Origin: a virus
Lineage: Duplodnaviria; Heunggongvirae; Uroviricota; Caudoviricetes
Reading direction: 5' to 3' (one strand)
DNA: 64,000 nucleotides
Virus record (IMG/VR): IMGVR_UViG_2778261223_000007
Location: 12,132 to 76,131 of that record
Shown: one piece after another, positions 1-63,926 of the stretch
How the letters are laid out: the number at the start of each line of letters is the position of its first letter
Position numbering within the stretch: the first letter of the stretch is position 1
Position numbers and translations under genes: made by a program
The notes under the pieces: generated by a model
What the model saw: the letters and a program-made list of their open reading frames with translations, nothing else
Database searches by the model: none
What the model was told of the DNA's origin: nothing

Positions 1-1
1 T

Positions 2-1948
2 AAGGATACATTTTTATCCACTGACGAAAACACAAAACAAGTAAAAAAAGCTGTTGAAGACGGCACCAAAAAAACTGTCGATGCGATTCATTCTTTAGGT
101 GAGCAGCTACAAGGCGGGCGTGATGGTGAAGATGGTGTTGGTGAGCACGGGTATACTTCCCCGGCTGAATTTAATGCCCCTACCAGCAACACCATTGCAG
201 CGGATCTGAATATTGGTGGCAGCAACGCCAAAAACCGCAATTACCGGAATAATAATCTCGGCAACCTTGTTTTCGCTAATCAGGAAGGGGCGACGCTGGA
301 AGCACCAAATGCAAAAGGTGAACAACGTTTTGCGCGATTTAACACGCCTGAAGAAGGGATCAGGGCGCTGGCAAACCAGGTGTCAAGCTATTACAACGGC
401 ACCAGCGCCGCTGCTGGGTATCAGAAGCTACAGACGGTATCCAGTATTATTTCCAAATGGGCACCCCCAAAGGAGAACAATACTAATCAATATATTGATA
501 ACGTCAGCAAATATCTTGGCGTCTCGCCTAATGAAAAAATAGACGTCAGCAACCCAGAGGTTATGACGCAATTAGTTCGTGCAATAGCGACGAAAGAAGG
601 TGGAAACCCGGCGGTTAACAATGAGTTCATAAAGAATGCTCTTGGGGCATTTAACACAAATACTGGTCGATGGGAGGGACAATTCTCTGACGAAACATTG
701 GCGCGGATTAATAAAATTCAGAAAGAAAATGGTGGTCAGCTAATTGCCCGCGATTCGCAATATAGTGTTGGTCGCAAGATAAAATATGTTAATGGAAAAT
801 CTCCAGCTCAACCAGTTTTGAATGCCGTTCCGACAGCAACACAACAGCCAATTGAGGTTGCACAACATGCCCAGGCAGTCAAAAAGCCACAAAAAACAGG
901 CAATCAATCGCAACCGATTAATCCAGAGAACGTTGATGTTAATACTGGCTCTCCATCAAGTCTGCTTGAGAGATTAATCGCTATAAATGACAGCGGGGTA
1001 GGTAATTTATTTGGAGGTGCGGCTACCAGCCTTGCTGGTACAAGCCTTGGCCTGATTAAGGATTTTGCGTCGGCGACTTCGTTTGGTTCTATATCTTCGC
1101 TTTCCGAAAAAGCGAAAGGAATGGATCAGGCTCTTACTGAAAAGATATCCAGCTTAACCGGTAAATCTTTTGGATTTCAAAAAGCAAGCCAGGTAACTGA
1201 TATAAGAGACGCTTTACAAAAAAGACCAAAAGCTGAACGCGATATGCCTTCAGTGGATCTTCTTTCCGGTGTTTCTTCGGCAAGTGAGAGTGAAAAAATC
1301 CCTGTAAACTCAAGGGGGATTCCAGTTTATGACAATGGATACAAGGTAATTGATGGTGAAGATAAGGGGGTGCTTGGCTCTTTGTTTGACTCGTCATTAA
1401 CAGGTCTGAAACGTATTAGCTCTGCTGTGTTACCTGCAATTGGCGATAACGTTTCACGACTTATTGGTGGGGTAGATGGCACTGGCATTGTTAATGATTT
1501 GGTTTATCAGGCTACTGGGCAGAACTCAACAATTGCTAGGGCTATTAGCCCGCTTACCAGGAGCGCCGGTAGTTGGCTGAATAATGGTATTCAACAAACC
1601 GCAGATAGCATTAGAGGTATATCAAACGAAGCCAATAATGCCATATTTGGCTCTGCGTCAGCCGTGCAAGAACCTTTTCTTGCTATGCCACCACAGCTTC
1701 CTACTGTAACAGATCTCGCACGAAGCGGAATAAGACAACCATTAACTACTGACACTATAAATAACGATCCTGCTATGTTGAAGGCGCTGGATAACATCTG
1801 CTCTATCCTGAACGATCTTCTGAATGTGAACAAGAACAATACAAAAGGCGATCCGGATAAGGTTGTCAAAACATCGCAGCCGCAACCGCGACCACGTGCT
1901 AGCACAACTATTAATGACCCGTCGCTGGATGCTCTGCTTGAGGATTAA
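2..1948 (+). CDS. sit: Sit-like tail tape-measure / injection transglycosylase, C-terminal part (5' end outside window)
   Basis: Frame 2 is open from nt 2, so the ORF-track Met at 380 is internal. NNNLGNLVF..RFNTPEEGIRAL muramidase-type motif at about nt 245-370. Lies upstream of baseplate and tail-fibre genes as in P1. Confidence 0.65.
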   Translation, partial: KDTFLSTDENTKQVKKAVEDGTKKTVDAIHSLGEQLQGGRDGEDGVGEHGYTSPAEFNAPTSNTIAADLNIGGSNAKNRNYRNNNLGNLVFANQEGATLEAPNAKGEQRFARFNTPEEGIRALANQVSSYYNGTSAAAGYQKLQTVSSIISKWAPPKENNTNQYIDNVSKYLGVSPNEKIDVSNPEVMTQLVRAIATKEGGNPAVNNEFIKNALGAFNTNTGRWEGQFSDETLARINKIQKENGGQLIARDSQYSVGRKIKYVNGKSPAQPVLNAVPTATQQPIEVAQHAQAVKKPQKTGNQSQPINPENVDVNTGSPSSLLERLIAINDSGVGNLFGGAATSLAGTSLGLIKDFASATSFGSISSLSEKAKGMDQALTEKISSLTGKSFGFQKASQVTDIRDALQKRPKAERDMPSVDLLSGVSSASESEKIPVNSRGIPVYDNGYKVIDGEDKGVLGSLFDSSLTGLKRISSAVLPAIGDNVSRLIGGVDGTGIVNDLVYQATGQNSTIARAISPLTRSAGSWLNNGIQQTADSIRGISNEANNAIFGSASAVQEPFLAMPPQLPTVTDLARSGIRQPLTTDTINNDPAMLKALDNICSILNDLLNVNKNNTKGDPDKVVKTSQPQPRPRASTTINDPSLDALLED

Positions 1949-5154: not shown

Positions 5155-8154
5155 ATGGGGGCTGATAAAACGAACAACATAATGACACTATCCTCTGGTG
5201 TCTCACAGCCTTTGCTTGCTGATGTTCAATATTTCGAACTCTATAGTAGTTCGGCTCTTAACAGAAAACTTAAAAATATTGTTTTGCCTGGCTTTTACTG
5301 TGGATTTGAACCAGTTCCCGGCACAGGGTTGAGTGTTCGTATAACTTCTGAAAACTCAGAAGGTAAAGGGGCTGCTTCAGTAGATGTAAATAATGTTCAG
5401 ATATCCGTTCAGCAAATAGAAGATGTGACTGTCTCGGTAAAGGCTGGGGCTACCAACATTATTGTGCTGGAAGCCAATTTTGAACATGGTGTAAAAACGA
5501 CACAGGTAGATAGCGCATCTTCTGTCAGTGCTGCAAGAATTTACGCGCGTACGGACAATACTATTGGGCAGAATCAAATTGAATTATGTCGAGTTATCGT
5601 GCCTAACGGCGCAACGGCTGTGACTAAAGAAATGATTGTGCTTAAATACCGGGTTAACCGTGCTGTTGGTGTCGAATTCTCTAATGAAATAAGCAGTACA
5701 GAAGAAAGAAAAGCGGCTACACCTCTGGCTGTCAAAACTCTCCATGATTTGGTTGATACAAAAGCTCCGCTCGATAGTCCGCATCTGTCAGGTACGCCGA
5801 CTTCGCCGACACCTGAACCCGGTACAAACAACACACAGATCGCAAATGCGGCCTTTGTCTATGCTGCTATAAATGCGCTTATCAATGGTGCTCCGGGAAC
5901 GATGGACACGCTGAAAGAAATAGCGGCTGCGATCAATAACGACCCGAATTTCAGCACAACTATCAACAATGCCCTGGCTCTTAAAGCTCCTTTGGCAAGC
6001 CCGGCGTTCACAGGTACGCCGACAGCACCTACGGCCTCACAAGGCACAAATAGCACGCAGATTGCAAATACAGCCTTTGTTAAGGCAGCTATAACGGCAC
6101 TTATCAACGGTGCGCCTGGCACACTGGATACGCTGAAAGAAATAGCGGCTGCGATCAATAACGACCCGAATTTCAGCACAACTATCAACAATGCCCTGGC
6201 TCTCAAAGCGCCTTTGGCAAGCCCTGCATTAACGGGTGTCCCTACTGCGCCGACCGCCGCACAGGGCACAAATAATACGCAGATTGCTACGACCGCTTAT
6301 GTAAGAGCTGCCATATCCGCATTGGTTGGTTCATCACCAGAAGCTCTTGATACCCTGAATGAGCTTGCCGCAGCACTTGGCAATGACCCGAACTTTGCGA
6401 CAACAATGACAAATGCGCTGGCAGGCAAACAGCCTCTGGATGCAACTTTAACCGCGCTCGCTGGCCTTGCGACTGGTGCAAACAAACTGCCTTATTTCAC
6501 CGGTAAGGATACGGTAGCGCAGACTGATTTAACGTCAGTCGGTCGCGATATTCTGGCTAAAACAAGCACACTGGCCGTTATCCAATACCTTGGTTTAAGA
6601 GAACTCGGTACCAGTGGTGAAAAGATCCCCCTGTTGAGTACGGCTAACACATGGAGTGCGCGCCAGACTTTCAATGGCGGGATCACCGGGGCGCTGACAG
6701 GGAACGCCGACACCGCGACGAAATTGAAAACAGCCATAAACATTAATGGCGTCAGGTTCGATGGTTCGGCTGACATTAATATCAATACTCTGGTATCGCG
6801 TGGTCGCGTAACGGCTCTGGGGGCGAATGCACAGGGGACATCCGGGATTCAGCTGTATGAGGCATACAACAATGGCTATCCTTCCCCCTATGGCAATGTG
6901 CTTCACCTTAAAGGTGCCACCGCTGCTGGCGAAGGTGAATTATTCATTGGCTGGAGTGGCTCGAGCGGTGACCATGCGCCCGTACATATCCGTTCGCGGC
7001 GTGATACTGATTCTGCCAACTGGTCTGAATGGGCACAGGTCTATACGTCAAAAGATTCAGTTCCCGGCGTTAATGCCAAAGGGAATCAGGATACCTCTGG
7101 TAATGCGGCTACAGCGACCAAATTGCAGACGGCGTGTACTATCAACGGTGTCTCGTTTGATGGTTCTAAAAACATTGAGCTAACGGCGGAAGATTTAAAT
7201 CTTGAGCAAACCGTAGAATTAGCCGCAGGAGCATTGCAGAAAAACCAGAACGGTGCAGATATTCCGAATAAAGATAAATTCATACAAAACACAGGGGCCT
7301 GTCGTGCATTTAGCGGTCAGACTGATATCGATGGTTCACAAGGTGAATGGTCGACAGTTGCATTTATCTCGTGGCTGGAGAATAACGGAGCTTTCCGACA
7401 TCCATACTGGATGTGTAAAGGGTCATGGTCCTATGCCAGAAACAGGGTTATTACGGATACCGGTTGTGGAAATATCTGCCTTGCCGGAGCCGTGATTGAG
7501 GTTATGGGAACCCGCGGCGCAATGACCATACGCGTTACCACGCCGAGCACGTCCAGCGGTGGCGGAATCACTAACGCTCAATTCACTTATATTAATCATG
7601 GTGATGCTTACGCTCCTGGCTGGCGACGAGACTACAACACGAAAAACCAGCAGCCTGCATTTGCTTTAGGGCAAACAGGACGCAGGGTCGCAAATGATAA
7701 AGCTGTTGGCTGGAACTGGAATAGCGGCGTTTATGATGCAGATATCAGTGGCGCATCGACATTAATCCTCCACTTTAATATGAATGCGGGGAGTTGCCCT
7801 GCTGTACAGTTCCGCGTGAATTACAGAAATGGCGGTATCTTTTATCGTTCAGCGCGTGATGGTTATGGCTTTGAAGCTAACTGGTCAGAGTTTTACACCA
7901 CAACACGCAAACCCTCTGCGGGAGATGTTGGTGCATATACGCAGGCAGAATGTAACTCAAGGTTTATTACAGGTATTCGCCTTGGCGGTCTGTCATCTGT
8001 TAAGACATGGAATGGTCCTGGCTGGTCTGACAGGTCAGGTTATGTCGTTACTGGTTCAGTTAACGGAAACCGTGATGAATTAATTGATACAACTCAGGCA
8101 AGGCCAATTCAGTATTGCATTAATGGAACGTGGTATAACGCGGGGAGTATTTAA
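5155..8154 (+). CDS. S: tail fibre protein S (constant part fused to the currently expressed variable part Sv)
   Basis: ATG 5155 with a GAGGG SD overlapping the R stop (the ORF track uses TTG 5149). N-terminus ADVQYFELYSSSALNRK resembles P1 S. Contains fibre collar repeats, and the ORF crosses the cix site at 6578-6603. Confidence 0.9.
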   Translation: MGADKTNNIMTLSSGVSQPLLADVQYFELYSSSALNRKLKNIVLPGFYCGFEPVPGTGLSVRITSENSEGKGAASVDVNNVQISVQQIEDVTVSVKAGATNIIVLEANFEHGVKTTQVDSASSVSAARIYARTDNTIGQNQIELCRVIVPNGATAVTKEMIVLKYRVNRAVGVEFSNEISSTEERKAATPLAVKTLHDLVDTKAPLDSPHLSGTPTSPTPEPGTNNTQIANAAFVYAAINALINGAPGTMDTLKEIAAAINNDPNFSTTINNALALKAPLASPAFTGTPTAPTASQGTNSTQIANTAFVKAAITALINGAPGTLDTLKEIAAAINNDPNFSTTINNALALKAPLASPALTGVPTAPTAAQGTNNTQIATTAYVRAAISALVGSSPEALDTLNELAAALGNDPNFATTMTNALAGKQPLDATLTALAGLATGANKLPYFTGKDTVAQTDLTSVGRDILAKTSTLAVIQYLGLRELGTSGEKIPLLSTANTWSARQTFNGGITGALTGNADTATKLKTAININGVRFDGSADININTLVSRGRVTALGANAQGTSGIQLYEAYNNGYPSPYGNVLHLKGATAAGEGELFIGWSGSSGDHAPVHIRSRRDTDSANWSEWAQVYTSKDSVPGVNAKGNQDTSGNAATATKLQTACTINGVSFDGSKNIELTAEDLNLEQTVELAAGALQKNQNGADIPNKDKFIQNTGACRAFSGQTDIDGSQGEWSTVAFISWLENNGAFRHPYWMCKGSWSYARNRVITDTGCGNICLAGAVIEVMGTRGAMTIRVTTPSTSSGGGITNAQFTYINHGDAYAPGWRRDYNTKNQQPAFALGQTGRRVANDKAVGWNWNSGVYDADISGASTLILHFNMNAGSCPAVQFRVNYRNGGIFYRSARDGYGFEANWSEFYTTTRKPSAGDVGAYTQAECNSRFITGIRLGGLSSVKTWNGPGWSDRSGYVVTGSVNGNRDELIDTTQARPIQYCINGTWYNAGSI
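5764..6429 (+). repeat. three tandem 222-bp (74-aa) tail-fibre repeats inside S
   Basis: Unit APLxSPxxTGxPTxPT..GTNxTQIAxTAFV..LINGAPGTLDTLKEIAAAINNDPNFSTTINNALALK. Units 1 and 2 are near-identical at DNA level over about 120 bp (5878 versus 6100, offset 222). Confidence 0.9.
6578..6603. other. cix recombination site inside S (TTATCCAATACCTTGGTTTAAGAGAA)
   Basis: 26-bp Hin/Gin/Cin-type crossover site, inverted relative to the copy at 10843-10868. Sequence homology between the two arms begins exactly here. Confidence 0.85.
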
Positions 8155-9249: not shown

Positions 9250-10857
9250 TTACACCTGTGCGACGTTATACCATGTGCCATTGATGTATTTTTGTATTGG
9301 CCTGAAGATGGCTTCATCATCGCCATCTACTTCACCAATGATTCTTAATCCGGTAATTGCGTGTCCGGCTTTTTCATAACGACCACCACGCGCCATCAAT
9401 TGAACAACACGTGTGCCAAGTCGGACATCTCTCACATAGCGTGAGTCAAAATTGCCATAATTGCCGGGAATAACTTGCGCACCACAAAGCCAGTTACCGT
9501 TATTATCCATGTACGCCTGACCATCGGTGCCATTGGCTGTCCTTGAGTTATTAATCATGTAGATGCCAAATTGCTTGTTCCCCAGTCCACCTATCATGAA
9601 CTTTCGGTCGGCGTGATTCTGGCGAAGTAACGCCTGAGCGCTATCAGTGTTAACTATATTTTTCCCAAAGATAGCGTTGTTATCGCGCATCTGAATCCAC
9701 ATACCATTACTGCTGTTAATAGCAAAACGGTCTGAAAGTGTCTCCCCTGAAACATTAAGACCACGTCCCATCGAAACAGCGCCAGTAGCGTTATTAATCC
9801 ATAATGGCCTTAATCCGTTATAAGTCCCCATGTTGTCACCGGAGTTTGTCAACATGAAGTATGTATTTGAACCATCATTACGAATAAAGAATCCGTAATT
9901 ACCATAAGCAATACGTAGGCCGTTTGCTGATTTTGATATGACTTCGCCATTTACAATGGCATTGACAAGAACATACAAAGCATCCCATTTAAGATTCATC
10001 AGGTCTTTTGTTGTGGTACTTTGTTTGCTTCTCCATTTGAAATATTCATTGCCGTTGTCGCCTGTCTCAAACCACATGTATGAATCAGTATCGCTGTCGG
10101 CATCATTTTTAAAACCAATCTTCGCCCAGTCAGTATTCCGAATCCAGGCAAGGATTGAGTCGTTTTCAAAAGTAAGTCCACCGGACAAGGTATCGCCTGT
10201 CTTTTGAACCGCGTTATCAGCCTTGTTTACCGTTTCCTGTAGATTTAAATCTTCCGCCGTTAGCTCAATATTTTTAGAACCGTCAAACGAGACGCCGTTG
10301 ATAGTACATGCTATCTGCAATTTGGTCGCTGTAGCCGCATTACCAGAGGTGTCCTGATTCCCTTTAGCATTGACGCCGGGAACTGAATCTTTTGACGTAT
10401 AGATCTGTGCCCACTCGGACCATGCCGCAGCAGTGCTATCTCTTTTGGATCGAATGAAAGCAGGTGCATGAGCGCCATTTGTGCCACTCCAGCCAATGAA
10501 TAACTCACCTTCGCCAGCAGCGGTGGCACCTTTAAGGTGAAGCACATTGCCATAGGGGGAAGGGTAGCCATTGTTGTATGCCTCATACATCTGCAATCCA
10601 GTAGCAGCACCTTGCGTTGTACCGGTAAGCGCAGTAACGCGTCCTCTAGACGTAATTGTTGGTATCGAAATGTTCGTAGAACCATCGAACCTGACGCCAT
10701 TAATGTTTATGGCTGTTTTTAATTTCGTCGCGGTATCGGCGTTCCCTGTCAGCGCCCCGGTGATCCCGCCGTTGAAAGTCTGGCGTGCACTCCACGTGTT
10801 AGCCGTGCTCAACAGGGGGATCTTTTCACCGCTGGTACCGAGTTCTCTTAAACCAAG
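9250..10857 (-). CDS. alternative tail-fibre variable segment Sv' (no promoter or start of its own)
   Basis: Reading frame runs in frame up to the cix site. Its first roughly 200 aa parallel Sv (STANTWSARQTFNGGITGALTGNADTATKLKTAININGVRFDGS...). It would fuse to Sc after inversion. Confidence 0.85.
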   Translation of the reverse strand, partial: LGLRELGTSGEKIPLLSTANTWSARQTFNGGITGALTGNADTATKLKTAININGVRFDGSTNISIPTITSRGRVTALTGTTQGAATGLQMYEAYNNGYPSPYGNVLHLKGATAAGEGELFIGWSGTNGAHAPAFIRSKRDSTAAAWSEWAQIYTSKDSVPGVNAKGNQDTSGNAATATKLQIACTINGVSFDGSKNIELTAEDLNLQETVNKADNAVQKTGDTLSGGLTFENDSILAWIRNTDWAKIGFKNDADSDTDSYMWFETGDNGNEYFKWRSKQSTTTKDLMNLKWDALYVLVNAIVNGEVISKSANGLRIAYGNYGFFIRNDGSNTYFMLTNSGDNMGTYNGLRPLWINNATGAVSMGRGLNVSGETLSDRFAINSSNGMWIQMRDNNAIFGKNIVNTDSAQALLRQNHADRKFMIGGLGNKQFGIYMINNSRTANGTDGQAYMDNNGNWLCGAQVIPGNYGNFDSRYVRDVRLGTRVVQLMARGGRYEKAGHAITGLRIIGEVDGDDEAIFRPIQKYINGTWYNVAQV

Positions 10858-35153: not shown

Positions 35154-35229
35154 GATGGTGTAGCTCAGCGGTTAGAGCGGTTGACTGTTAATCAACGGGT
35201 CGATGGTTCAAATCCATCCACCATCGCCA
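35154..35229 (+). tRNA. tRNA-Asn (GUU)
   Basis: Manual cloverleaf: acceptor GATGGTG/CACCATC, D stem GCTC/GAGC, anticodon loop CTGTTAA, T arm GATGG-TTCAAAT-CCATC, encoded CCA. Confidence 0.9.
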
Positions 35230-35231
35230 AT

Positions 35232-35307
35232 GCCGGTTTAGCTCAGTTGGTAGAGCGCCTGCCTTGTAAGCAGGATGTCAGCGGTTCGAGTCCGTTAATC
35301 GGCACCA
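35232..35307 (+). tRNA. tRNA-Thr (UGU)
   Basis: Acceptor GCCGGTT/AATCGGC, anticodon loop CTTGTAA, T loop TTCGAGT, encoded CCA. Starts 2 nt after tRNA-Asn. Confidence 0.9.
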
Positions 35308-35308
35308 G

Positions 35309-35395
35309 CACAACAGGTAAGGGTATTTTGCGACGTCGGAGATCGCCGAGCTTGGCAGAGGGTTCGAATCCCTACGAAGTACCCTTACCGTTGTG
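35309..35395 (+). ncRNA. tRNA-like element lacking an anticodon arm, closed by a 16-bp bulged stem (hairpin B)
   Basis: CACAAC-A-GGTAAGGGTA pairs with TACCCTTACC-GTTGTG. Interior has a D-arm-like GCGA-CGTCGGAGA-TCGC and a T-arm AGGG-TTCGAAT-CCCT. No CCA. Confidence 0.45.
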
Positions 35396-35535
35396 ATGAA
35401 GTGCAGCTCTTTGAAGCAACCAGAAGATAAGCATCTGGCTTCACAACATAAACCGCAGGAACGACCAATAAACGGTAGTCCGTACGGAGAACACCCCGTT
35501 GAGGAAGAGGCCTGGCCGGAACCGTAACCGGCACT

Positions 35536-35627
35536 ACAACGTTGAGAACACTGGCGTAACGGGGTCATATCCCAATCTACGAATAAATGTTGCGTTGCAG
35601 CGTGACAACCAGTGTTCTCAACGTTGT
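35536..35627 (+). other. 19-bp perfect hairpin D (ACAACGTTGAGAACACTGG / CCAGTGTTCTCAACGTTGT)
   Basis: Perfect inverted repeat 35536-54 / 35609-27 with a 54-nt loop. Confidence 0.7.
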
Positions 35628-35772
35628 GGTGGATTCGCAGGCTGATGCGATAGCTTTCTTGGATGTTAGGGAAATGCGGCCGCAAATCTTCCCTTTCGCG
35701 AGCGGTGATCGTCCGTAGTCCTAATTGGCTGCACCGTATGCCGGAGATTCAGTACCGGCCACCACAACGGCC

Positions 35773-35859
35773 GGAGAGTAGGGCGCATGGTGCTCAAGCG
35801 GTCTTGAAAACCGTCCCATTGCGCAAGCGATGATGGTTCGATTCCATTACTCTCCGCCA
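35773..35859 (+). tRNA. class II tRNA-Ser (UGA), slightly non-canonical
   Basis: Acceptor GGAGAGT/ACTCTCC, anticodon stem GCGGT/ACCGT with loop CTTGAAA, variable arm ATTGC-GCAA-GCGAT, T loop TTCGATT, encoded CCA. Position 8 is A rather than U. Confidence 0.7.
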
Positions 35860-36126
35860 GCGCAACGTTAAGAGTATTTGGCTAATTAAGCGAATGCCGG
35901 AAGCAGAACCGGATCACCAAATGCGTACAGGCGTCATCGCCGCCCAGCCAGCCAAGTGCTCTTACCATTGCGGTGAATGCGGCTAAGCGCACGCGGAACA
36001 GTTAAAACAATCCTCCTTAGTGGTTAAGTCAAAAATCCCGGCGTTAATTGTTAACTGGTTAACGTCACCTGGAGGCACCAGGCACCGCAACCTAATAAAT
36101 ACGTCATGTTTATTGAGGGATAACCA

Positions 36127-36561
36127 ATGTTCGGTAAATTTTTCGGTAAGAAAGTCGCTTCAGCAAAAGTAGAGCTGAAAAGGGTTGAGAATCGCGATCT
36201 GATGGAGGCCATTATCGGTGGCTGTTTGTTGGTGTCTGCCGCAGATGGTGAAATCGAAAAGGAAGAAACAGCGAAACTTGATCAGCTTGTCCGCTCTAAT
36301 CCTCGCTTAAGTCATTTTGGCAACGAAATTACCGCAACAATCACCCGTTTTACTGAGCAACTGGAAGCTGGTTTCCGTGTTGGTCGCATGAATATCCTTC
36401 GCGAAATTGAAGATATCAAAAATGATCCAAAAGAAGCGGAAGAAGTATTCGTTAACATGCTGACGATTGCAGAAGCGGACGGTGAAATCGAGCCAGCAGA
36501 ACACAAAGTACTGGAAGAAGTAGGCCGTCGTTTGGGCCTTCGTGTGGAAGATTATCTGTAA
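36127..36561 (+). CDS. tciA: TerB-domain protein TciA
   Basis: 144 aa with two SAADGEIEKEE / AEADGEIEPAE TerB-type repeats; embedded in the tRNA cluster as in P1. Confidence 0.75.
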   Translation: MFGKFFGKKVASAKVELKRVENRDLMEAIIGGCLLVSAADGEIEKEETAKLDQLVRSNPRLSHFGNEITATITRFTEQLEAGFRVGRMNILREIEDIKNDPKEAEEVFVNMLTIAEADGEIEPAEHKVLEEVGRRLGLRVEDYL

Positions 36562-36725
36562 TGATTGGCAAGGCGCGTATTGCGTGCGCCATTGGTTTTC
36601 TCGTTTTGTCCGTGCTGGTGGATTTCACCAGCAAAGTGATGTCGGTGTTGGCTGATGGGGCACTGGTTTCAGTAGCTGTGGTATTGCTATTGCCGATTAT
36701 TAAAGCTGCGTTCAGGAACTCATGA
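36561..36725 (+). CDS. tciB: small membrane protein (TciB position)
   Basis: 54-aa ORF below the ORF-track cutoff. ATG overlaps the tciA stop (TAATG). Two hydrophobic helices. Confidence 0.5.
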   Translation: MIGKARIACAIGFLVLSVLVDFTSKVMSVLADGALVSVAVVLLLPIIKAAFRNS

Positions 36726-36835
36726 TGGATTTTTGGACGTATATTGATAAGAACCCTGGATGGTCTTTGCTATTTCTGCTTGTGATCGTATACGGAGTAG
36801 AACAAGTAGCGAAGAATCTCAGGCGTCGAAAATAA
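36722..36835 (+). CDS. tciC: small membrane protein (TciC position)
   Basis: 37-aa ORF MMDFWTYIDKNPGWSLLFLLVIVYGV..; overlaps the tciB stop. Confidence 0.45.
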   Translation: MMDFWTYIDKNPGWSLLFLLVIVYGVEQVAKNLRRRK

Positions 36836-36844
36836 AAACTAATT

Positions 36845-36920
36845 GGCCCCTTAGCTCAGTGGTTAGAGCTGGCGACTCATAATCGCACGGTCACCGGTTC
36901 AAGTCCGGTAGGGGCCACCA
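36845..36920 (+). tRNA. tRNA-Ile2 (CAU, lysidine type)
   Basis: GGCCCCTTAGCTCAGTGGTTAGAGC..CTCATAA.. is nearly identical in its 5' half to E. coli ileX as I remember it. Encoded CCA. Confidence 0.85.
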
Positions 36921-53480: not shown

Positions 53481-54173
53481 TCAGACTTTAAGCTGCCCTC
53501 CCTTCACCTGCATTAGCGTCAGATTTCCGCAAAAAACCGCGCCCGTGTCTATGTAGTGCTGATTCCAGTATGCTTTTGGTCTTCGTACCGGTGTGTGCCC
53601 AAAGATAAAGCGATCTGCGCCTGTGATTTCTCCACCAATGCCATCTATCGAATCACCGACGCGACTGCGCGACCAGACAACATCAAAAAGCGACACATCC
53701 TTACCGAACTGGTACTCTCCACCTGGATAGTCGGCATGGGCTATAACGATAGTTTCATGCCCGGTGTTCAACTCAATGATATATGGCAGACGCTTTACCA
53801 GCTCCACCAGCGCCCAGGCTAATATTTCCTGATCAGTGTCCAGCATGAAGAACCATTGTCCGCCATTCATTAGCCAGTTATTCACGTTGCCATCAGGACT
53901 TAACGCATCAAGCATCAACCGCTCATGGTTCCCCATTACTGCCCTGAACCAGGGCATCTGCAATAGTTCCAGACATTCGACATTTTCAGTACCGCGATCG
54001 ATAAGGTCGCCAACAGATATCAGTAAATCCTGCGCCGGGTCAAAATCCACACGATGGAGTTCGGACATCAGTCTGGTGTAGCAACCATGCAGATCACCAA
54101 CAACCCATATGTTTCTGTAGCCAGAACCATCAATACGGCTATATAAATTCACTTCATGCATAGTCTGGATCAT
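53481..54173 (-). CDS. pap: Ser/Thr protein phosphatase (lambda PPase-like metallophosphoesterase)
   Basis: GDLHG, GDLIDRG and GNHE motifs. ATG 54173 follows GGGAGAAGG and overlaps the upstream stop (the ORF track starts at 54203). Confidence 0.85.
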
Positions 54174-60261: not shown

Positions 60262-60300
60262 AGCCAAAAAGCAGGCTTAATAGTAAGCCTGCTATGTCAA

Positions 60301-61134
60301 TCACGAATCTCTCTGACAATTCAGAAACATAAACGCCCGCTTGTCTGTTAAATCCGTAACATAATACTCTCTCATGCCTGTAGGTTTTATTCTACGAGCA
60401 TATACAAACTTATGAACTGGTTGTTTTTCCCCATAACTTACATCAGTCCTAAATTCATCAACCACGCTACCATCTTTTTCAGTTTCCTTTCTCACTAGCT
60501 GATTTTCTAATACAGGCTTTGATTCGTCCATGCCACTAAAAGCATCCTGACCTGTGCTGTTGCCTCGGTTTCCGCGTGGCAAATCCCATGAAAAATAAGT
60601 GCCATAGTCAGTAATCACACGATCCCATGTTCCGGAATCCCCCATATAGTTAGAACGCTCCCCCTTGTAAGTTACAGCCACCTTACAGGCATACGTTTCA
60701 CCATTATTTTTTTTATCATGTCCAGCCATGCTTGCAGGAGTTGCAGGGGAATTATGAATAGATGCGCTTACATCATCTTGCGTTAATTTCTCAACTGGAG
60801 CAAATTCATATATGGGTGTGCCGAGGCTATTTAAATATAACTTATATCTAACCCTAAGCGCACTTCCATCTGAGAATTCATACGTTCCCAGGCATTGGAG
60901 CTTATTGTTTTCTCTTATCTCATTGATCTGATTATAAGCATCAATTACAGAGATTGCTTCCTGCTCGTCCTTCAGCAGTTCATTATAATCATCGATTAAC
61001 ATCTGCCTAGTTTTAGGGGAATTGCAGTCAATTTTGCTAAAATCATAAGCAAAGGTGAGTGTGGGAACAAAAAGAGCAACAACAGTAGCTAGTATTGTTG
61101 AGGAAAATCTTTTTCCATTTTTTATAAAAAACAT
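60301..61134 (-). CDS. secreted protein of unknown function
   Basis: 277 aa from ATG 61134, 9 nt after GGAG (the ORF track starts at 61212). Signal peptide MFFIKNGKRFSSTILATVVALFVPTLTFA|YD. Confidence 0.55.
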   Translation of the reverse strand: MFFIKNGKRFSSTILATVVALFVPTLTFAYDFSKIDCNSPKTRQMLIDDYNELLKDEQEAISVIDAYNQINEIRENNKLQCLGTYEFSDGSALRVRYKLYLNSLGTPIYEFAPVEKLTQDDVSASIHNSPATPASMAGHDKKNNGETYACKVAVTYKGERSNYMGDSGTWDRVITDYGTYFSWDLPRGNRGNSTGQDAFSGMDESKPVLENQLVRKETEKDGSVVDEFRTDVSYGEKQPVHKFVYARRIKPTGMREYYVTDLTDKRAFMFLNCQRDS

Positions 61135-61322
61135 TTCATTAACTCCATACCTTACCATCTTAGCCGCGAGCGCGGTCCCTAAAACCATTAACTTCACTGC
61201 ACCGTCCTTCATGCAATCAAAATGACTTTTATGTTATAAAAATAATCAGCCAAATCAACATGATTTAGGCCAAATTTCTGTCAAAAAATAAAATCCACAA
61301 AAAGTGGTTGACACTATTTTGG

Positions 61323-61343
61323 AAATCACAAACTGCACATAAT
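61323..61343 (+). promoter_or_regulatory. candidate late promoter AAATCACA-AACTGCA-CATAAT
   Basis: Motif copy, unusually 137 nt upstream of the next ATG, with a terminator in between. Confidence 0.5.
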
Positions 61344-61427
61344 CCATCGCGCTAACGGCTCCCGTTGAAGGTTCTTTTGACGATTAACTTTCAGCCGAAG
61401 CGCGGTAGGGAGTCATAACGCCAAAGC

Positions 61428-61452
61428 AGGCCGCCATGTGCGGCCTTTTTTT
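61428..61452 (+). terminator. intrinsic terminator inside the leader
   Basis: AGGCCGC-CATGT-GCGGCCT followed by T7; ends 28 nt before ATG 61480. Confidence 0.8.
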
Positions 61453-61479
61453 GTATCCGTCATCCGTGGAGGAAGGACA

Positions 61480-62133
61480 ATGGAAAAGATCGCAATATTC
61501 AGCCTGACCACCAGCAAGCCTCAAATGCTCACTGCAATACTGAAAGACGGTGCTCTCATTATTAACGAAGTAAAACCCCTTCCCGCGTCAGCATTGGAGC
61601 AAAAGCAAAAAATTCCTCCAGCTATAGCAGCCCTGCGGAAAAGCAAATTTAAGGTACTGGTAGACGAAATTACGCCAACGATCTCCGCTGGCACCGGAGC
61701 AAGCCAGGTGACTCTCAAGACCCGTCATGCCGATGGCAGAGCAGCAATCATCGTCGGGATGGAAAGATACAGAGAGTTAAAACTCCAGAAGCTATTATCC
61801 CTGCCGCAAAATAACAAAGGTGCTTTCGAAATCCCTGACTCCATCGTTGACACCGAATACAACGGTAACGGAGAAGAAGTCTACCGGGTGAACTGGCAGG
61901 ATATCAGGCCGGAGCATATTTTGATGATCCTGTGTTGCTACGCGACCGTATACCACAATGTTGCCAGTGCGGATTACGTAGAGCAGATGACCGGTACAGT
62001 CGAGAAAGAGCAAAAAACAGGCATACTCGCTTCGTTCCTGTCCATTATTGGGCATGAAAAAGTTAAAGCAGGCACCTCCCAGCCAAAGTCACTGACTGGG
62101 AAAGAAGTTGATGAAGATACCGTGATACTTTGA
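61480..62133 (+). CDS. hypothetical late protein
   Basis: 217 aa from ATG 61480, which follows GGAGGAAGG. The ORF-track GTG 61438 would read through the terminator hairpin. Confidence 0.55.
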   Translation: MEKIAIFSLTTSKPQMLTAILKDGALIINEVKPLPASALEQKQKIPPAIAALRKSKFKVLVDEITPTISAGTGASQVTLKTRHADGRAAIIVGMERYRELKLQKLLSLPQNNKGAFEIPDSIVDTEYNGNGEEVYRVNWQDIRPEHILMILCCYATVYHNVASADYVEQMTGTVEKEQKTGILASFLSIIGHEKVKAGTSQPKSLTGKEVDEDTVIL

Positions 62134-62268
62134 TCACATTAGTAGCTTTGTTAACTCCCTCAATACCAGGTAGAAGAGTAACAAAAATATTGACGCCAGT
62201 ATTTGCGTGGTCAATGAAGCGTTCATAAACAGATCAATTAGCATTAATAATTCGAAGATAACATCCAT
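62134..62268 (-). CDS. 44-aa hydrophobic peptide
   Basis: MDVIFELLMLIDLFMNASLTTQILASIFLLLFYLVLRELTKLLM. GGAGTG SD upstream. Below the ORF-track cutoff. Confidence 0.35.
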   Translation of the reverse strand: MDVIFELLMLIDLFMNASLTTQILASIFLLLFYLVLRELTKLLM

Positions 62269-62409
62269 GTCATTCACTCCGTTTAATTTTTAATCTAATG
62301 CCAGCAAATGAAGCTGGCCCCCGCATAAAGATTAATGAAAGTCACTTGTCACCAGTGAGGGGATTTATGAACCACATCCCCCTGAACTGGTGGCCTGTCT
62401 GTTTCTCGC

Positions 62410-62430
62410 ATTTCACACCCTGCATACAGT
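62410..62430 (+). promoter_or_regulatory. candidate late promoter ATTTCACA-CCCTGCA-TACAGT
   Basis: Variant motif copy 32 nt upstream of ATG 62462. Confidence 0.45.
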
Positions 62431-62461
62431 TTCCCCCAGGTTATGACTGAGAGGCTTTGTT

Positions 62462-62791
62462 ATGGGCTATAGCAGACTCGACGATAGGTACATTGAAGAC
62501 GATATTTTTCGTGCGCTGTTTCACCAGGAAATGATTAAGCGGGTATCGGAGTATCACTCTGATAATTTCCAGTACACGATAAAGATTGATGAAGTATATC
62601 GTTCAGACCTTGCAGCCTACCGGGCGTATGGCAATGCAGATTTGCGCTGGGTATTCCGGGTGCTGGTGGGCCATGAGTCAGAAATGGAAGAAATGCCCGC
62701 CGGGACCACGTTAACTCTTCCTGATGTGGCATGGCTGAGGAACAAGATCCGTGATTACGCGAGCGCGGAACCGGAGATAGAAAATGCCTGA
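62462..62791 (+). CDS. tail-protein-X-like (LysM-like) small protein
   Basis: 109 aa. YTIKIDEVYRSDLAAYRAYGNADLRWVF...GTTLTLPD resembles P2 gpX-type proteins. Confidence 0.4.
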   Translation: MGYSRLDDRYIEDDIFRALFHQEMIKRVSEYHSDNFQYTIKIDEVYRSDLAAYRAYGNADLRWVFRVLVGHESEMEEMPAGTTLTLPDVAWLRNKIRDYASAEPEIENA

Positions 62792-63926
62792 TTTCCTGAA
62801 AAACCAGGACGGGCGCTATATCACTGACGGCCTGTCCTCTAAGGACTTCACGCGTTTATTCGACCTTATCAGGAAAGAACAAACCCGTAAGCGCCGACAA
62901 GCTCACCGGACGCTGACGCCAGGTAGACTGAGGAACAAATCCGCCGAAGATATTCTCAAGTTAGGGAAGAAAAAAGGCGGCACGTTCTTCACGCGAGACG
63001 ACCTGAAAGGTTTCGAAAAGCTACGGAGTAAAACACGCGAAAAATATGACAGCAAGACGGCTGGCATCACATACGCCCAGCTGGTGGCATCCAGCCAGGC
63101 AATCGATATTAAGCGTGCAAATAACGCCGTGGATGACGGATCTGGTATCAAAAGAGCTACACCCGTATCTCTTCGCCACAACGTGATTAATATCCGCGTA
63201 GAAGCATCGAATATATCCGTCCACCAGCACCATATCGTCCGGATACGCTTTGAAGAATGGGATCAGATGGTCGATGACATCGCAGAAGACGATAAATCAG
63301 CTCTGAAAATCACTAAATCACTGTGCGCCGGGCGGGTGTCTTTCGATTGTGACTGTGGTCGTCATCAATACTGGTATCGTTACATCGCTACTGCGGGTAA
63401 CTTTGCCCTGGCCCCGCCAAAAGAATACGCCTATCCAAAAGTTCGTAACCCTAAGCTACAAGGCGTCGCCTGTAAACACGTGATCCACTCAATGACGCGG
63501 TTACAGTCCGCCAGTTGGCAAATGAGTATTGCTCGTGCGTTACAAAAGGCTGCAACGCAAATTGCATTTGGTGACGATCGCCGCCGTACAACCAAACACT
63601 TCTCAAAAGAAGACGAGAGGGAGTTTAATCGCAATCGCAACAGTAAAACAAACGTTGACGCTGCCAAGCGCGAATGGAGGCTCTATCAGAAGCGCCAGGC
63701 AGCTTTAAGTACAAAACTGGCAAAGGACAACGGCAAGATCGACAAGCTACGTGACCAATTGACCAGGGCCAGAAAGTTGTCAGACGCACAGAAAAAACGG
63801 GCGGCTGCAAAAGAAGCGGCCTTGCAACGAGAGAAACAGAAAAACAAGGAGCTTCAGCAACGCCTTGCCGATCAGTTCGCACTGAAGAAGCAGGCGTTCA
63901 TTGATGCGCTTGTCATGGCAGGATGA
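62784..63926 (+). CDS. SWIM zinc-finger protein with basic coiled-coil tails
   Basis: 380 aa. CDCGRHQYWYRY...GVACKHVIH fits the CxC..CxH SWIM pattern. Confidence 0.5.
   Translation: MPDFLKNQDGRYITDGLSSKDFTRLFDLIRKEQTRKRRQAHRTLTPGRLRNKSAEDILKLGKKKGGTFFTRDDLKGFEKLRSKTREKYDSKTAGITYAQLVASSQAIDIKRANNAVDDGSGIKRATPVSLRHNVINIRVEASNISVHQHHIVRIRFEEWDQMVDDIAEDDKSALKITKSLCAGRVSFDCDCGRHQYWYRYIATAGNFALAPPKEYAYPKVRNPKLQGVACKHVIHSMTRLQSASWQMSIARALQKAATQIAFGDDRRRTTKHFSKEDEREFNRNRNSKTNVDAAKREWRLYQKRQAALSTKLAKDNGKIDKLRDQLTRARKLSDAQKKRAAAKEAALQREKQKNKELQQRLADQFALKKQAFIDALVMAG

Follow-up and report, generated by a model that had tools for sequence, protein, structure and literature searches.

Between the late promoter of mat and the mat start codon, the phage-plasmid described here carries more than a hundred nucleotides of structured sequence and what appears to be a complete terminator, which raises the question of what this interval encodes. 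The stretch analysed, hereafter the window, comprises 64,000 nucleotides (nt) of the IMG/VR virus record IMGVR_UViG_2778261223_000007; its positions 60300-63900 are 98.8% identical to Escherichia phage D6, and by sequence comparison it is a D6-like phage-plasmid of the P1 family. The interval is flanked by a simB-like gene (60301-61212, minus strand) and by the D6 homologue of P1 mat, the 'maturation control' gene (plus strand). The original prediction had placed a late promoter at 61323, one of eight in the window and unusually far from its ATG, and the distance from the -10 to the start codon is indeed 136 nt. It had proposed either a discrete late small RNA (sRNA) of ~100 nt or a leader that requires antitermination or riboswitch-like read-through. 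Our preferred reading, to which we assign a probability of roughly 0.6, is that the interval encodes a late, trans-acting sRNA that doubles as the mat leader and pairs with the 5' untranslated region (5'UTR) of the major-capsid (gene 23) mRNA. The first of the two earlier proposals is thus strongly favoured by the sequences compared, which combine a conserved, terminator-ended structured RNA with a co-varying complementarity to the capsid message.

Complementarity between the mat leader and the capsid mRNA

The whole genome of D6 (NC_050154, 91 kb) was scanned for complements of the exposed hairpin of the leader, hairpin P2 (Table 1). The sequence CGUCAAAAGAACCUUCA, at 54102-54118 on the minus strand of D6, is a 17/17 complement of window positions 61366-61382 (site 1). 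No other perfect complement to any part of the leader exceeds 11 nt in D6, a length reached three times in 182 kb of transcript space. The capsid site directly follows the late-promoter box AAATCACAAAGTAG..TATTGT and lies 28-44 nt before the GTG start of gene 23, ~18 kb from the leader; the window itself covers roughly D6 69.4-91.2 kb and 1-42.3 kb. The complementary stretch begins 6-8 nt after the -10 of the capsid late promoter in every lineage, and the gene 23 mRNA is predicted to start at the G of GUCAAAAG in D6 and at that of GAAAAGGG in P1. The predicted target of site 1 is the very 5' end of the capsid mRNA. Within the window the only candidate targets are chance-level matches of 10-11 nt, including the repeats at 7045 and 10398 and the start of the simB-like gene.

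Table 1. Coordinates of the mat leader, its pairing sites and the adjoining features (window positions unless a genome or contig is named; the start and end of the RNA are predicted).
Feature	Position	Strand	Sequence or remark
Predicted mat leader / late sRNA, ~104 nt	61349-61452	+	probable start G 61349, 6-7 nt past the -10; ends with the U-tract
Pairing site 1 (seed)	61366-61382	+	UGAAGGUUCUUUUGACG; 5' arm and loop of P2; complements the first 17 nt of the predicted gene 23 mRNA
Pairing site 2	61400-61406	+	GCGCGG(U); invariant in all D6-supergroup leaders
PB0	61349-61354 / 61416-61421	+	GCGCUA/UAACGC; closing helix
PB1	61357-61363 / 61408-61414	+	GGCUCCC/GGGAGUC; closing helix
Hairpin P2	61366-61373 / 61386-61393	+	arms UGAAGGUU and AACUUUCA; loop CUUUUGACGAUU, 61374-61385 (12 nt)
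P3	61394-61397 / 61403-61406	+	GCCG/CGGU; least conserved helix; absent in lineage L048, shortened in lineage L224
Intrinsic terminator	61428-61452	+	AGGCCGC-CAUGU-GCGGCCU + U7; found by terminator scan; hairpin -12.5 kcal/mol
Late-promoter motif	61323-61343	+	AAATCACAAACTG-CA-CATAAT; box 61323-61335, -10 CATAAT 61338-61343
TTGACA, -35-like hexamer	61308-61313	+	24 nt before the -10; the conserved promoter-RNA-mat module has its left edge here
mat gene	61480-62133	+	ATG 61480, stop 62133; Shine-Dalgarno GGAGGAAGG at 61468-61476
Capsid UTR two-stem structure	D6 NC_050154 54074-54125	-	
Capsid UTR two-stem structure	L358 5720-5770		
Capsid UTR two-stem structure	L541 15730-15790		
Capsid UTR two-stem structure	L542 19550-19610		

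The complementarity is retained where both partners have diverged. In P1 the leader segment UGGAUCCCUUUUC pairs with GAAAAGGGAUUCA of the capsid UTR, immediately after LP23, through 13 pairs of which one is G·U, and in Cronobacter phage JK004 the leader segment UGGGACUCUUUUCA pairs with the capsid UTR segment UGAAAAGAGUUCCA. Between P1 and JK004 there are two two-sided changes (C:G to U:A and U:A to A:U) and two one-sided changes that keep pairing, and other P1-type genomes combine a single UTR sequence, GUUCC, with a leader that reads GGGAC, GGAAC or GGAGC, each of which pairs with it. Three fully compensatory changes distinguish Pantoea eucalypti (leader GGAAUUUUUGAC, UTR GUCAAAAAUUCC) from D6 (leader GGUUCUUUUGAC, UTR GUCAAAAGAACC); Leclercia carries a 1-nt insertion on both sides, with 15 of 16 positions paired; E. 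hormaechei forms 17 pairs, comprising 14 Watson-Crick and three G·U; and among the D6 sub-lineages every difference is a C-to-U change facing G. A capsid-UTR partner of the Klebsiella type was also sought in IMG/VR, where the matches listed included the leaders themselves, and Leclercia was used instead. Cognate duplexes have energies of -18 to -26 kcal/mol, as against -5 to -9 for the cross-supergroup pairs of D6 with P1. The leader therefore contains a conserved segment complementary to the capsid UTR whose complementarity is kept through co-variation in six further lineages, and the Mat proteins of the lineages with compensatory changes are 34-75% identical.

This co-variation bears on the possibility that the element acts purely in cis, as a stable 5' structure with a leaky terminator that insulates mat, the capsid match being functionless. 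Such a role would suit the strong terminator directly before mat, the nuclease-like character predicted for Mat, the further repression of the mat promoter in P1 by way of a C1 operator and the existence of mat lineages (E. kobei, Vibrio) that lack the RNA. A perfect complement of 17 nt is, however, far beyond chance where the next best reaches 11 nt, the compensatory changes retain complementarity across so wide a range of Mat divergence, and stability alone would leave the invariant loop and the invariant GCGCGG of site 2 unexplained. We consider a purely cis-acting element quite improbable.

A complementarity between transcripts of two loci is equally an inverted identity between two DNA duplexes, and both copies of the 13-17 bp segment lie close to late promoters, as would be expected of a co-evolving site, in opposite orientations, for a phage DNA-binding protein. 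The within-genome differences speak against this arrangement, for they break DNA identity and retain RNA pairing through G·U: three are found in E. hormaechei and one each in P1, JK004 and two D6 sub-lineages, and in the P1 type three leader variants face one UTR sequence. Furthermore, the segment occupies about +1..17 at the capsid promoter and about +18..34 at the mat promoter, it is embedded at mat in a helix that itself covaries, and the six other late promoters in the window carry no site 1-like sequence. A shared protein-binding site is thus very improbable, and we retain pairing between the two RNAs as the preferred explanation.

A second contact may accompany the first. Site 2 complements (G)CCGCGC, a motif that all the D6-type capsid 5'UTRs examined share unchanged a few bases downstream of the site 1 target, with duplex energies of -13 to -15 kcal/mol; the invariance of site 2 is not accounted for by the fold of the leader. 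In the P1 type an invariant leader GGCAC faces GUGCC in the capsid UTR. From their sequences these second sites, of both types, are suggestive only.

Inverted copies of ..CTATACGTCAAAAGATTCAGTTCCCG.. at 7045-7056 (plus strand) and 10387-10398 (minus strand) flank about 3.3 kb of the window and, judged by sequence, are equivalent to the repeats of the Cin-invertible tail-fibre segment, for which D6 carries annotated cix sites; their 10-nt match to the complement of the sRNA loop is at chance level.

Fold and conservation of the leader

From its probable start at G 61349, the minimum free energy (MFE) structure of the window sequence (-37.6 kcal/mol) is a three-way junction, referred to as fold B, in which the closing helices PB0 and PB1 bring together hairpin P2 and the small hairpin P3; a short A-rich linker joins the junction to the terminator hairpin. 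P2 forms part of the MFE structure of the transcript from this start, its helix is also supported in both of the alignments described below, and the core of its loop, UUUUG.C.A, is invariant in 16 lineages.

Sixteen distinct leaders, aligned by MAFFT without regard to structure, served to evaluate the fold, with 500 shuffles as control. On this alignment 82% of cells are paired in fold B and ten pairs show double changes, a count reached by 4 of the 500 shuffles. On an alignment fitted to the covariance model, which leans towards its own model (fold B), pairing reaches 86% of cells, with slid controls at 34-55%, and compensatory changes occur in 19 of the 30 pairs (0/500 shuffles). The closing helix formed by PB0 and PB1 accounts for many of these changes, with 10 of its 12 pairs compensatory on the model-fitted alignment and 5 of 12 on the MAFFT-only alignment; PB1 itself occurs as GGCUCCC/GGGAGUC in D6, GUUUCC/GGAGAC in Raoultella, AGAUUCUUU/AAAGAAUCU in the metagenomic lineage L224 and GUGUUCCC/GGGAACAU in Klebsiella.

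A competing structure, fold A, is built on the CGCGC/GCGCG long-range helix and is the MFE structure of 61346-61455, but only with the three bases upstream of the probable start included. Most of the relatives, when folded, give fold B. It pairs 79% of cells on the MAFFT-only alignment, with six double-change pairs (reached by 48 of 500 shuffles), and 71% on the model-fitted alignment, where its covariation is not above shuffles, and it loses to the three-way junction when folding begins at the probable start. Both structural elements put forward earlier within the leader are present in the sequence: the CGCGC...GCGCG pair is part of fold A and shares its lack of covariation above shuffles, and the AACGG-CTC-CCGTT hairpin is not conserved in relatives. 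Application of RNAalifold to the raw MAFFT alignment gave a poor and different structure that was not used. Two further contacts were considered and set aside: kissing between the P2 and P3 loops is not conserved, and pairing of the P2 loop with the mat start region, through a 6-nt AAAAGA match in D6, is lost where the second and third codons differ.

A covariance model built from the relatives finds a sole match in the window, at 61345-61452, with 118 bits and an E value of about 5e-27, and it recovers every D6-type leader, including that of lineage L048, which was outside the seed (28.7 bits). The search of Rfam that had been suggested for this region returned no family (Rfam 15): the best overlap was isrK, whose 14.7 bits fall short of its gathering score of 50 and whose hit is confined to the terminator, and eight other lineages likewise gave no match at E<=1. 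The leader also shows no sign of a leader peptide, with no Shine-Dalgarno-bearing open reading frame (ORF) in the D6 sequence and no conserved ORF in the relatives.

The leaders of the P1 type share this architecture. The 130-nt interval of P1 contains a 10-bp long-range helix, two hairpins and the terminator AGCCGCC-GCU-GGUGGCU followed by a U-run, and the predicted ends of the P1 RNA, at about 2703 and 2813, correspond to window positions 61349 and 61452. Aligned with MAFFT, P1-type leaders are paired in 95% of cells, compared with 35-45% in slid controls, and five compensatory pairs fall in the closing helix. Since the D6-type covariance model fails on the P1 type, homology between the two types of leader rests on position and architecture.

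The leader is better conserved than both the coding DNA of mat and the DNA upstream. Its identity to the leaders of E. marmotae, E. hormaechei and Raoultella is 95, 82 and 84%, respectively; the corresponding values for mat DNA are 78, 71 and 69%, third codon positions being at 50-58%. Over the 110 nt that precede the leader, identity to the same three relatives is 49-76%.

A conserved three-way junction with invariant junction-proximal bases, placed directly before a terminator and for which two mutually exclusive folds can be drawn, could also be pictured as a riboswitch-like or put-like element in cis, sensing a ligand or modifying RNA polymerase to control read-through. Here, Rfam is silent in all nine lineages searched; no terminator/antiterminator alternative was found, nor a leader peptide; the spacer between junction and terminator ranges from 6 to ~30 nt; fold A depends on bases that are probably not transcribed; and the invariant bases are accounted for by the capsid-UTR complementarity. 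We regard such an element as extremely improbable. The earlier suggestion of controlled read-through accordingly survives in part: pairing of the junction with the terminator and a match to an Rfam family are both missing, and read-through is still needed to reach mat.

Promoter, terminator and the mat module

The late-promoter motif before the leader belongs to a series. A loose pattern of box plus -10-like hexamer occurs eight times in the window (4647+, 11473+, 15257+, 17763+, 23813+, 23777-, 62410+ and 61323+), and a strict form occurs three times against 0.02 expected by chance. The seven copies other than that of mat have 29-51 nt between the -10 and a start codon provided with a Shine-Dalgarno sequence. 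The mat copy is equivalent in position to the P1 promoter LPmat (-22 box AAGTGACTT and -10 CAGAAT in the P1 annotation), from which its box differs in sequence, and like the late promoters of the P1 family it comprises a conserved box near -22 and a -10 that are repeated before late genes. An Lpa homologue is annotated in D6, and 61323-61343 is a putative late (Lpa-type) promoter.

Upstream of the box, the -35-like hexamer TTGACA has counterparts, TTGAC(A/C/G) or TTGCAA, at the equivalent place in most relatives of the D6, Klebsiella/Leclercia, Pantoea and P1 types, and the P1 annotation gives at this site the -35 of a sigma-70 promoter, Pmat, together with a C1 operator. Among the late promoters, a hexamer of this kind (TTGACA/TTGACC/TTGCAA) after an A-run is particular to that of mat, and its spacing of ~24 nt is too long for a normal sigma-70 promoter using the same -10. 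The palindrome CCAC-AAAAA-GTGG that had been pointed out beside it does adjoin the hexamer, at 61295-61307, and is not conserved in relatives. In several plasmids similarity to the window begins exactly at TTGACA 61308 (query position 79), and because the edge falls there, promoter, RNA and mat appear to move as one mosaic block.

The terminator described in the original prediction, AGGCCGC-CATGT-GCGGCCT-T7, is present as reported, with a stem of seven pairs (six of them G-C), a 5-nt loop and seven U residues, as is characteristic of intrinsic (Rho-independent) terminators. Its stem is paired in 100% of cells among 18 D6-type sequences, with two compensatory pairs, and a terminator is found in all nine P1-type leaders, where 97% of stem cells are paired. 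From these motifs we infer the start and the 3' end of the RNA. The terminator ends 28 nt before the mat ATG, and as no promoter intervenes, mat would be reached solely by read-through. Because gene 26 (62462) has its own late-promoter copy, ATTTCACACCCTG-CA-TACAGT at 62410-62430, 31 nt before it, mat would be monocistronic behind the terminator in D6-type genomes. In Klebsiella, Pantoea, Leclercia and Enterobacter lineages mat, 26 and 25, with more tail genes, are contiguous and would all follow the terminator. In Raoultella (contig L223, 931-1000) ~45 extra nt between terminator and mat contain TTTCACACTTCA-TA-CATAGC, from its sequence a possible weak second late-promoter-like box; if this promoter is real, the RNA of that lineage would be a free-standing transcription unit uncoupled from mat.

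The fold predicted for Mat is that of the nuclease domain of large terminases, and no Pfam match was found; a role of Mat as an RNA-binding regulator was rejected on the basis of the predicted fold. For a protein of this modelled type, low and insulated expression by way of the terminator is plausible.

In P1 (NC_005856) LPmat ends at 2696 and mat is annotated from the ATG at 2716, and similarity to D6 Mat and PHROG 1837 is confined to the part from the ATG at 2827 onwards. The intervening 37 codons (2716-2826) span the structured RNA and the terminator, and in JK004 an indel and a stop codon break the frame of this extension with the RNA helices retained. The annotated N-terminus of P1 Mat is therefore probably non-coding, and the sequence comparison indicates that mat is probably misannotated in P1, with its real start at 2827. 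CRISPR interference guides or deletions designed on the long P1 mat ORF may consequently strike the RNA and not Mat. One published screen failed to detect the known essentiality of mat (PMC10695390).

Regions upstream of mat were gathered from phages, plasmids, IMG/VR contigs and assemblies. A leader with terminator precedes mat in the D6-like, E. marmotae, E. fergusonii/Shigella, E. hormaechei and Raoultella lineages, in the ENA metagenome lineage L224, in the Klebsiella/Salmonella/Leclercia, Enterobacter, Pantoea and L048 lineages, and likewise in P1, JK004 and two further P1-type lineages. In the D6, E. marmotae, E. hormaechei, Raoultella, Klebsiella/Leclercia/Salmonella, Enterobacter, Pantoea, L048, P1 and JK004 lineages the promoter accompanies leader, terminator and mat. 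In the genomes collected the leader is present in a single copy, each time directly 5' of mat; a scan of genome contigs with Mat yielded three loci only.

Copies of the module also occur on plasmids. A 168-kb Salmonella plasmid (pSa1423-160k; L004, 1555-1790), in which mat is not annotated, holds a decayed leader with indels in the junction helices, probably a pseudogenised remnant. Widespread sil/pco resistance plasmids of Klebsiella and Raoultella carry a P1-like phage fragment (ref, leader, mat, 26 and 25) in which the RNA is intact, for example in Klebsiella pneumoniae NZ_OW970446.1 (L359, 22000-46000) and in L095; these plasmids are near-identical copies and say little about selection. 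Elsewhere in the window, 35154-36920 contains four transfer RNA genes (Asn-GTT, Thr-TGT, Ser-TGA and Met-CAT), of which the D6 record annotates three (Ser, Thr and Asn).

Proposed action on the capsid mRNA and relation to known systems

The MFE structure of the D6-type capsid 5'UTR consists, in all six lineages, of an outer stem whose 3' strand includes the GUG start and an inner hairpin GCCC/GGGC whose 3' strand holds the Shine-Dalgarno AGGG. The outer stem covaries, being UUCACG/CGUGAA in D6, CUCGCAG/UUGUGAG in Pantoea and CUCACA/UGUGAG in Leclercia. Because these stems enclose both the Shine-Dalgarno and the GUG, the D6-type capsid mRNA is suggested to be translationally locked by default. 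The target of site 1 shares 4-5 nt with the 5' strand of the outer stem, and the inner hairpin is overlapped on its 5' strand by the target of site 2.

The proposed course of events is as follows. The Lpa-type promoter would start transcription near 61349 at late times, and most transcripts would stop at 61428-61452 to yield the ~104-nt RNA, with a read-through minority carrying mat. The terminated RNA is predicted to pair in trans with the capsid 5'UTR made from the separate late promoter: contact would begin between nucleotides of the P2 loop and the free 5' end of the capsid mRNA, and the duplex would then extend by displacing the 3' arm of P2, a displacement that is proposed because the intermolecular helix is all Watson-Crick in D6 and P2 contains G·U. 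The capsid start region would then open, so that capsid synthesis is switched on or stabilised, and in D6-type phages the modelled structures suggest that pairing probably frees a hidden ribosome site and start codon. As sites 1 and 2 overlap the 5' strands of the inhibitory stems, anti-antisense activation is the simplest model; protection of the 5' end from decay may be an alternative or additional outcome.

The same co-varying complementarity would also fit control in the opposite direction, in which abundant capsid mRNA unfolds the nascent leader junction and alters terminator read-through, thereby coupling Mat to the capsid message. The RNA is always physically tied to mat, for which read-through is the only route, the promoter-leader-mat unit travels as a single mosaic block, and the dose of a protein with a terminase-nuclease fold plausibly matters. 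On the other side, inspection by eye and folding revealed no alternative pairing that links an unfolded junction to the terminator arms, the spacer between junction and terminator is variable in length, trans pairing would have to occur within the few seconds before the terminator is transcribed, and the extra nucleotides and possible second box of Raoultella would uncouple mat. We therefore judge reversed control unlikely. A reciprocal checkpoint, in which the leader activates capsid translation and capsid mRNA tunes mat read-through, would couple synthesis of the shell with that of the DNA-maturation nuclease through one co-evolving duplex, whose sequence would make the D6-type and P1-type systems orthogonal, a barrier between co-resident phage-plasmids; this extension of sRNA-mediated activation is speculative and rather unlikely.

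Several observations weigh against the preferred reading of a late sRNA acting on the capsid mRNA. The capsid target lies outside the 64-kb window, its sequence having been taken from the D6 reference and from contigs whose leader is identical, and both transcription starts, the 3' end and the efficiency of the terminator derive from motifs. As the complementarity of the two loci is the same DNA inverted, only the differences of the G·U type favour RNA. Sites 1 and 2 are partly base-paired in the leader's own fold, so that pairing requires strand invasion from the loop, and the evidence for site 2 is weaker than that for site 1 because it is 6-7 nt long and GC-rich. The D6-type covariance model misses the P1-type leaders, matching just their terminators, and activation is not generalised to the P1 type because its capsid UTR does not have the same stems. 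Finally, the distant mat homologues of E. kobei and Vibrio have no such RNA upstream, and a Klebsiella sil/pco plasmid retains the RNA with no capsid gene in the 24 kb examined.

P1 is among the most used and best annotated phages, and P1- and D6-type phage-plasmids are common carriers of resistance genes in Enterobacteriaceae. A literature search found no paper that deals with this RNA, with leaders at LPmat or with regulation of P1 gene 23 by an sRNA. From the sequences compared the leader is very probably a late base-pairing sRNA, and represents a new RNA family of a known kind in a textbook phage. If the proposal is true, the family has a previously undescribed late regulatory RNA, which in the P1 reference lies within the annotated Mat coding sequence; this RNA would control the most abundant virion protein and would add a post-transcriptional layer to a late programme for which Lpa has been the sole explanation to date. 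The proposal would also correct the start codon of P1 mat and may account for odd genetics at mat, the naturally co-varying sRNA/UTR pairs could serve as orthogonal riboregulators, and the prediction is directly testable by standard P1 genetics.

Small RNAs with some of these features are known from P1 itself and from other phages. The c4 antisense RNA of P1 (immI; Rfam C4, RF01695) arises by processing of a longer transcript; it is active in lysogeny and represses ant. It resembles the mat leader in being a small structured RNA of the same phage family and, as is proposed for the leader, acts in trans through two short, separate complementary segments; it differs in that the leader has a predicted late promoter, its own terminator and a structural gene as target, and the leader matches neither the C4 nor the isrK model. 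The 6S RNA of lambda PR' and StxS of Stx phages are short late-promoter transcripts ended at tR', and StxS acts as a trans sRNA. Like these, the mat leader combines a late promoter with a strong terminator after about 100-200 nt, and the genes downstream need read-through; unlike in lambda, only mat and not the whole late region lies behind the D6 terminator, given the promoter of gene 26 at 62410. In lambda the Q antiterminator, acting at qut, brings about read-through; D6 has no annotated Q homologue, though no search aimed at Q was made.

Among bacterial RNAs, SreA/SreB and rnTrpL are 5'UTR-derived sRNAs that arise by premature termination, and the likeness lies in one promoter that would give both a terminated trans-acting RNA and a read-through mRNA. 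The mat leader differs from them in having no evident ligand-sensing or leader-peptide mechanism, there being no conserved ORF and the frame being broken by indels between P1 and JK004. FasX pairs with the extreme 5' end of ska mRNA in Streptococcus pyogenes and stabilises it; the organism and RNA family are different and stabilisation is here one possible outcome, and in every lineage the complementarity to the capsid mRNA similarly extends over the first 13-17 nt predicted for that mRNA. A parallel to the proposed activation is provided by the anti-antisense translational activators DsrA, RprA and ArcZ on rpoS, RNAIII on hla and GlmZ on glmS. Here, in contrast, both partners are phage late transcripts, the contact is at the extreme 5' end of the target and involves two separate sites, and the P1-type UTR is without the same stems; what would be shared is the principle that the sRNA binds the upstream strand of an inhibitory 5'UTR stem, and the D6-type capsid UTR has such stems.

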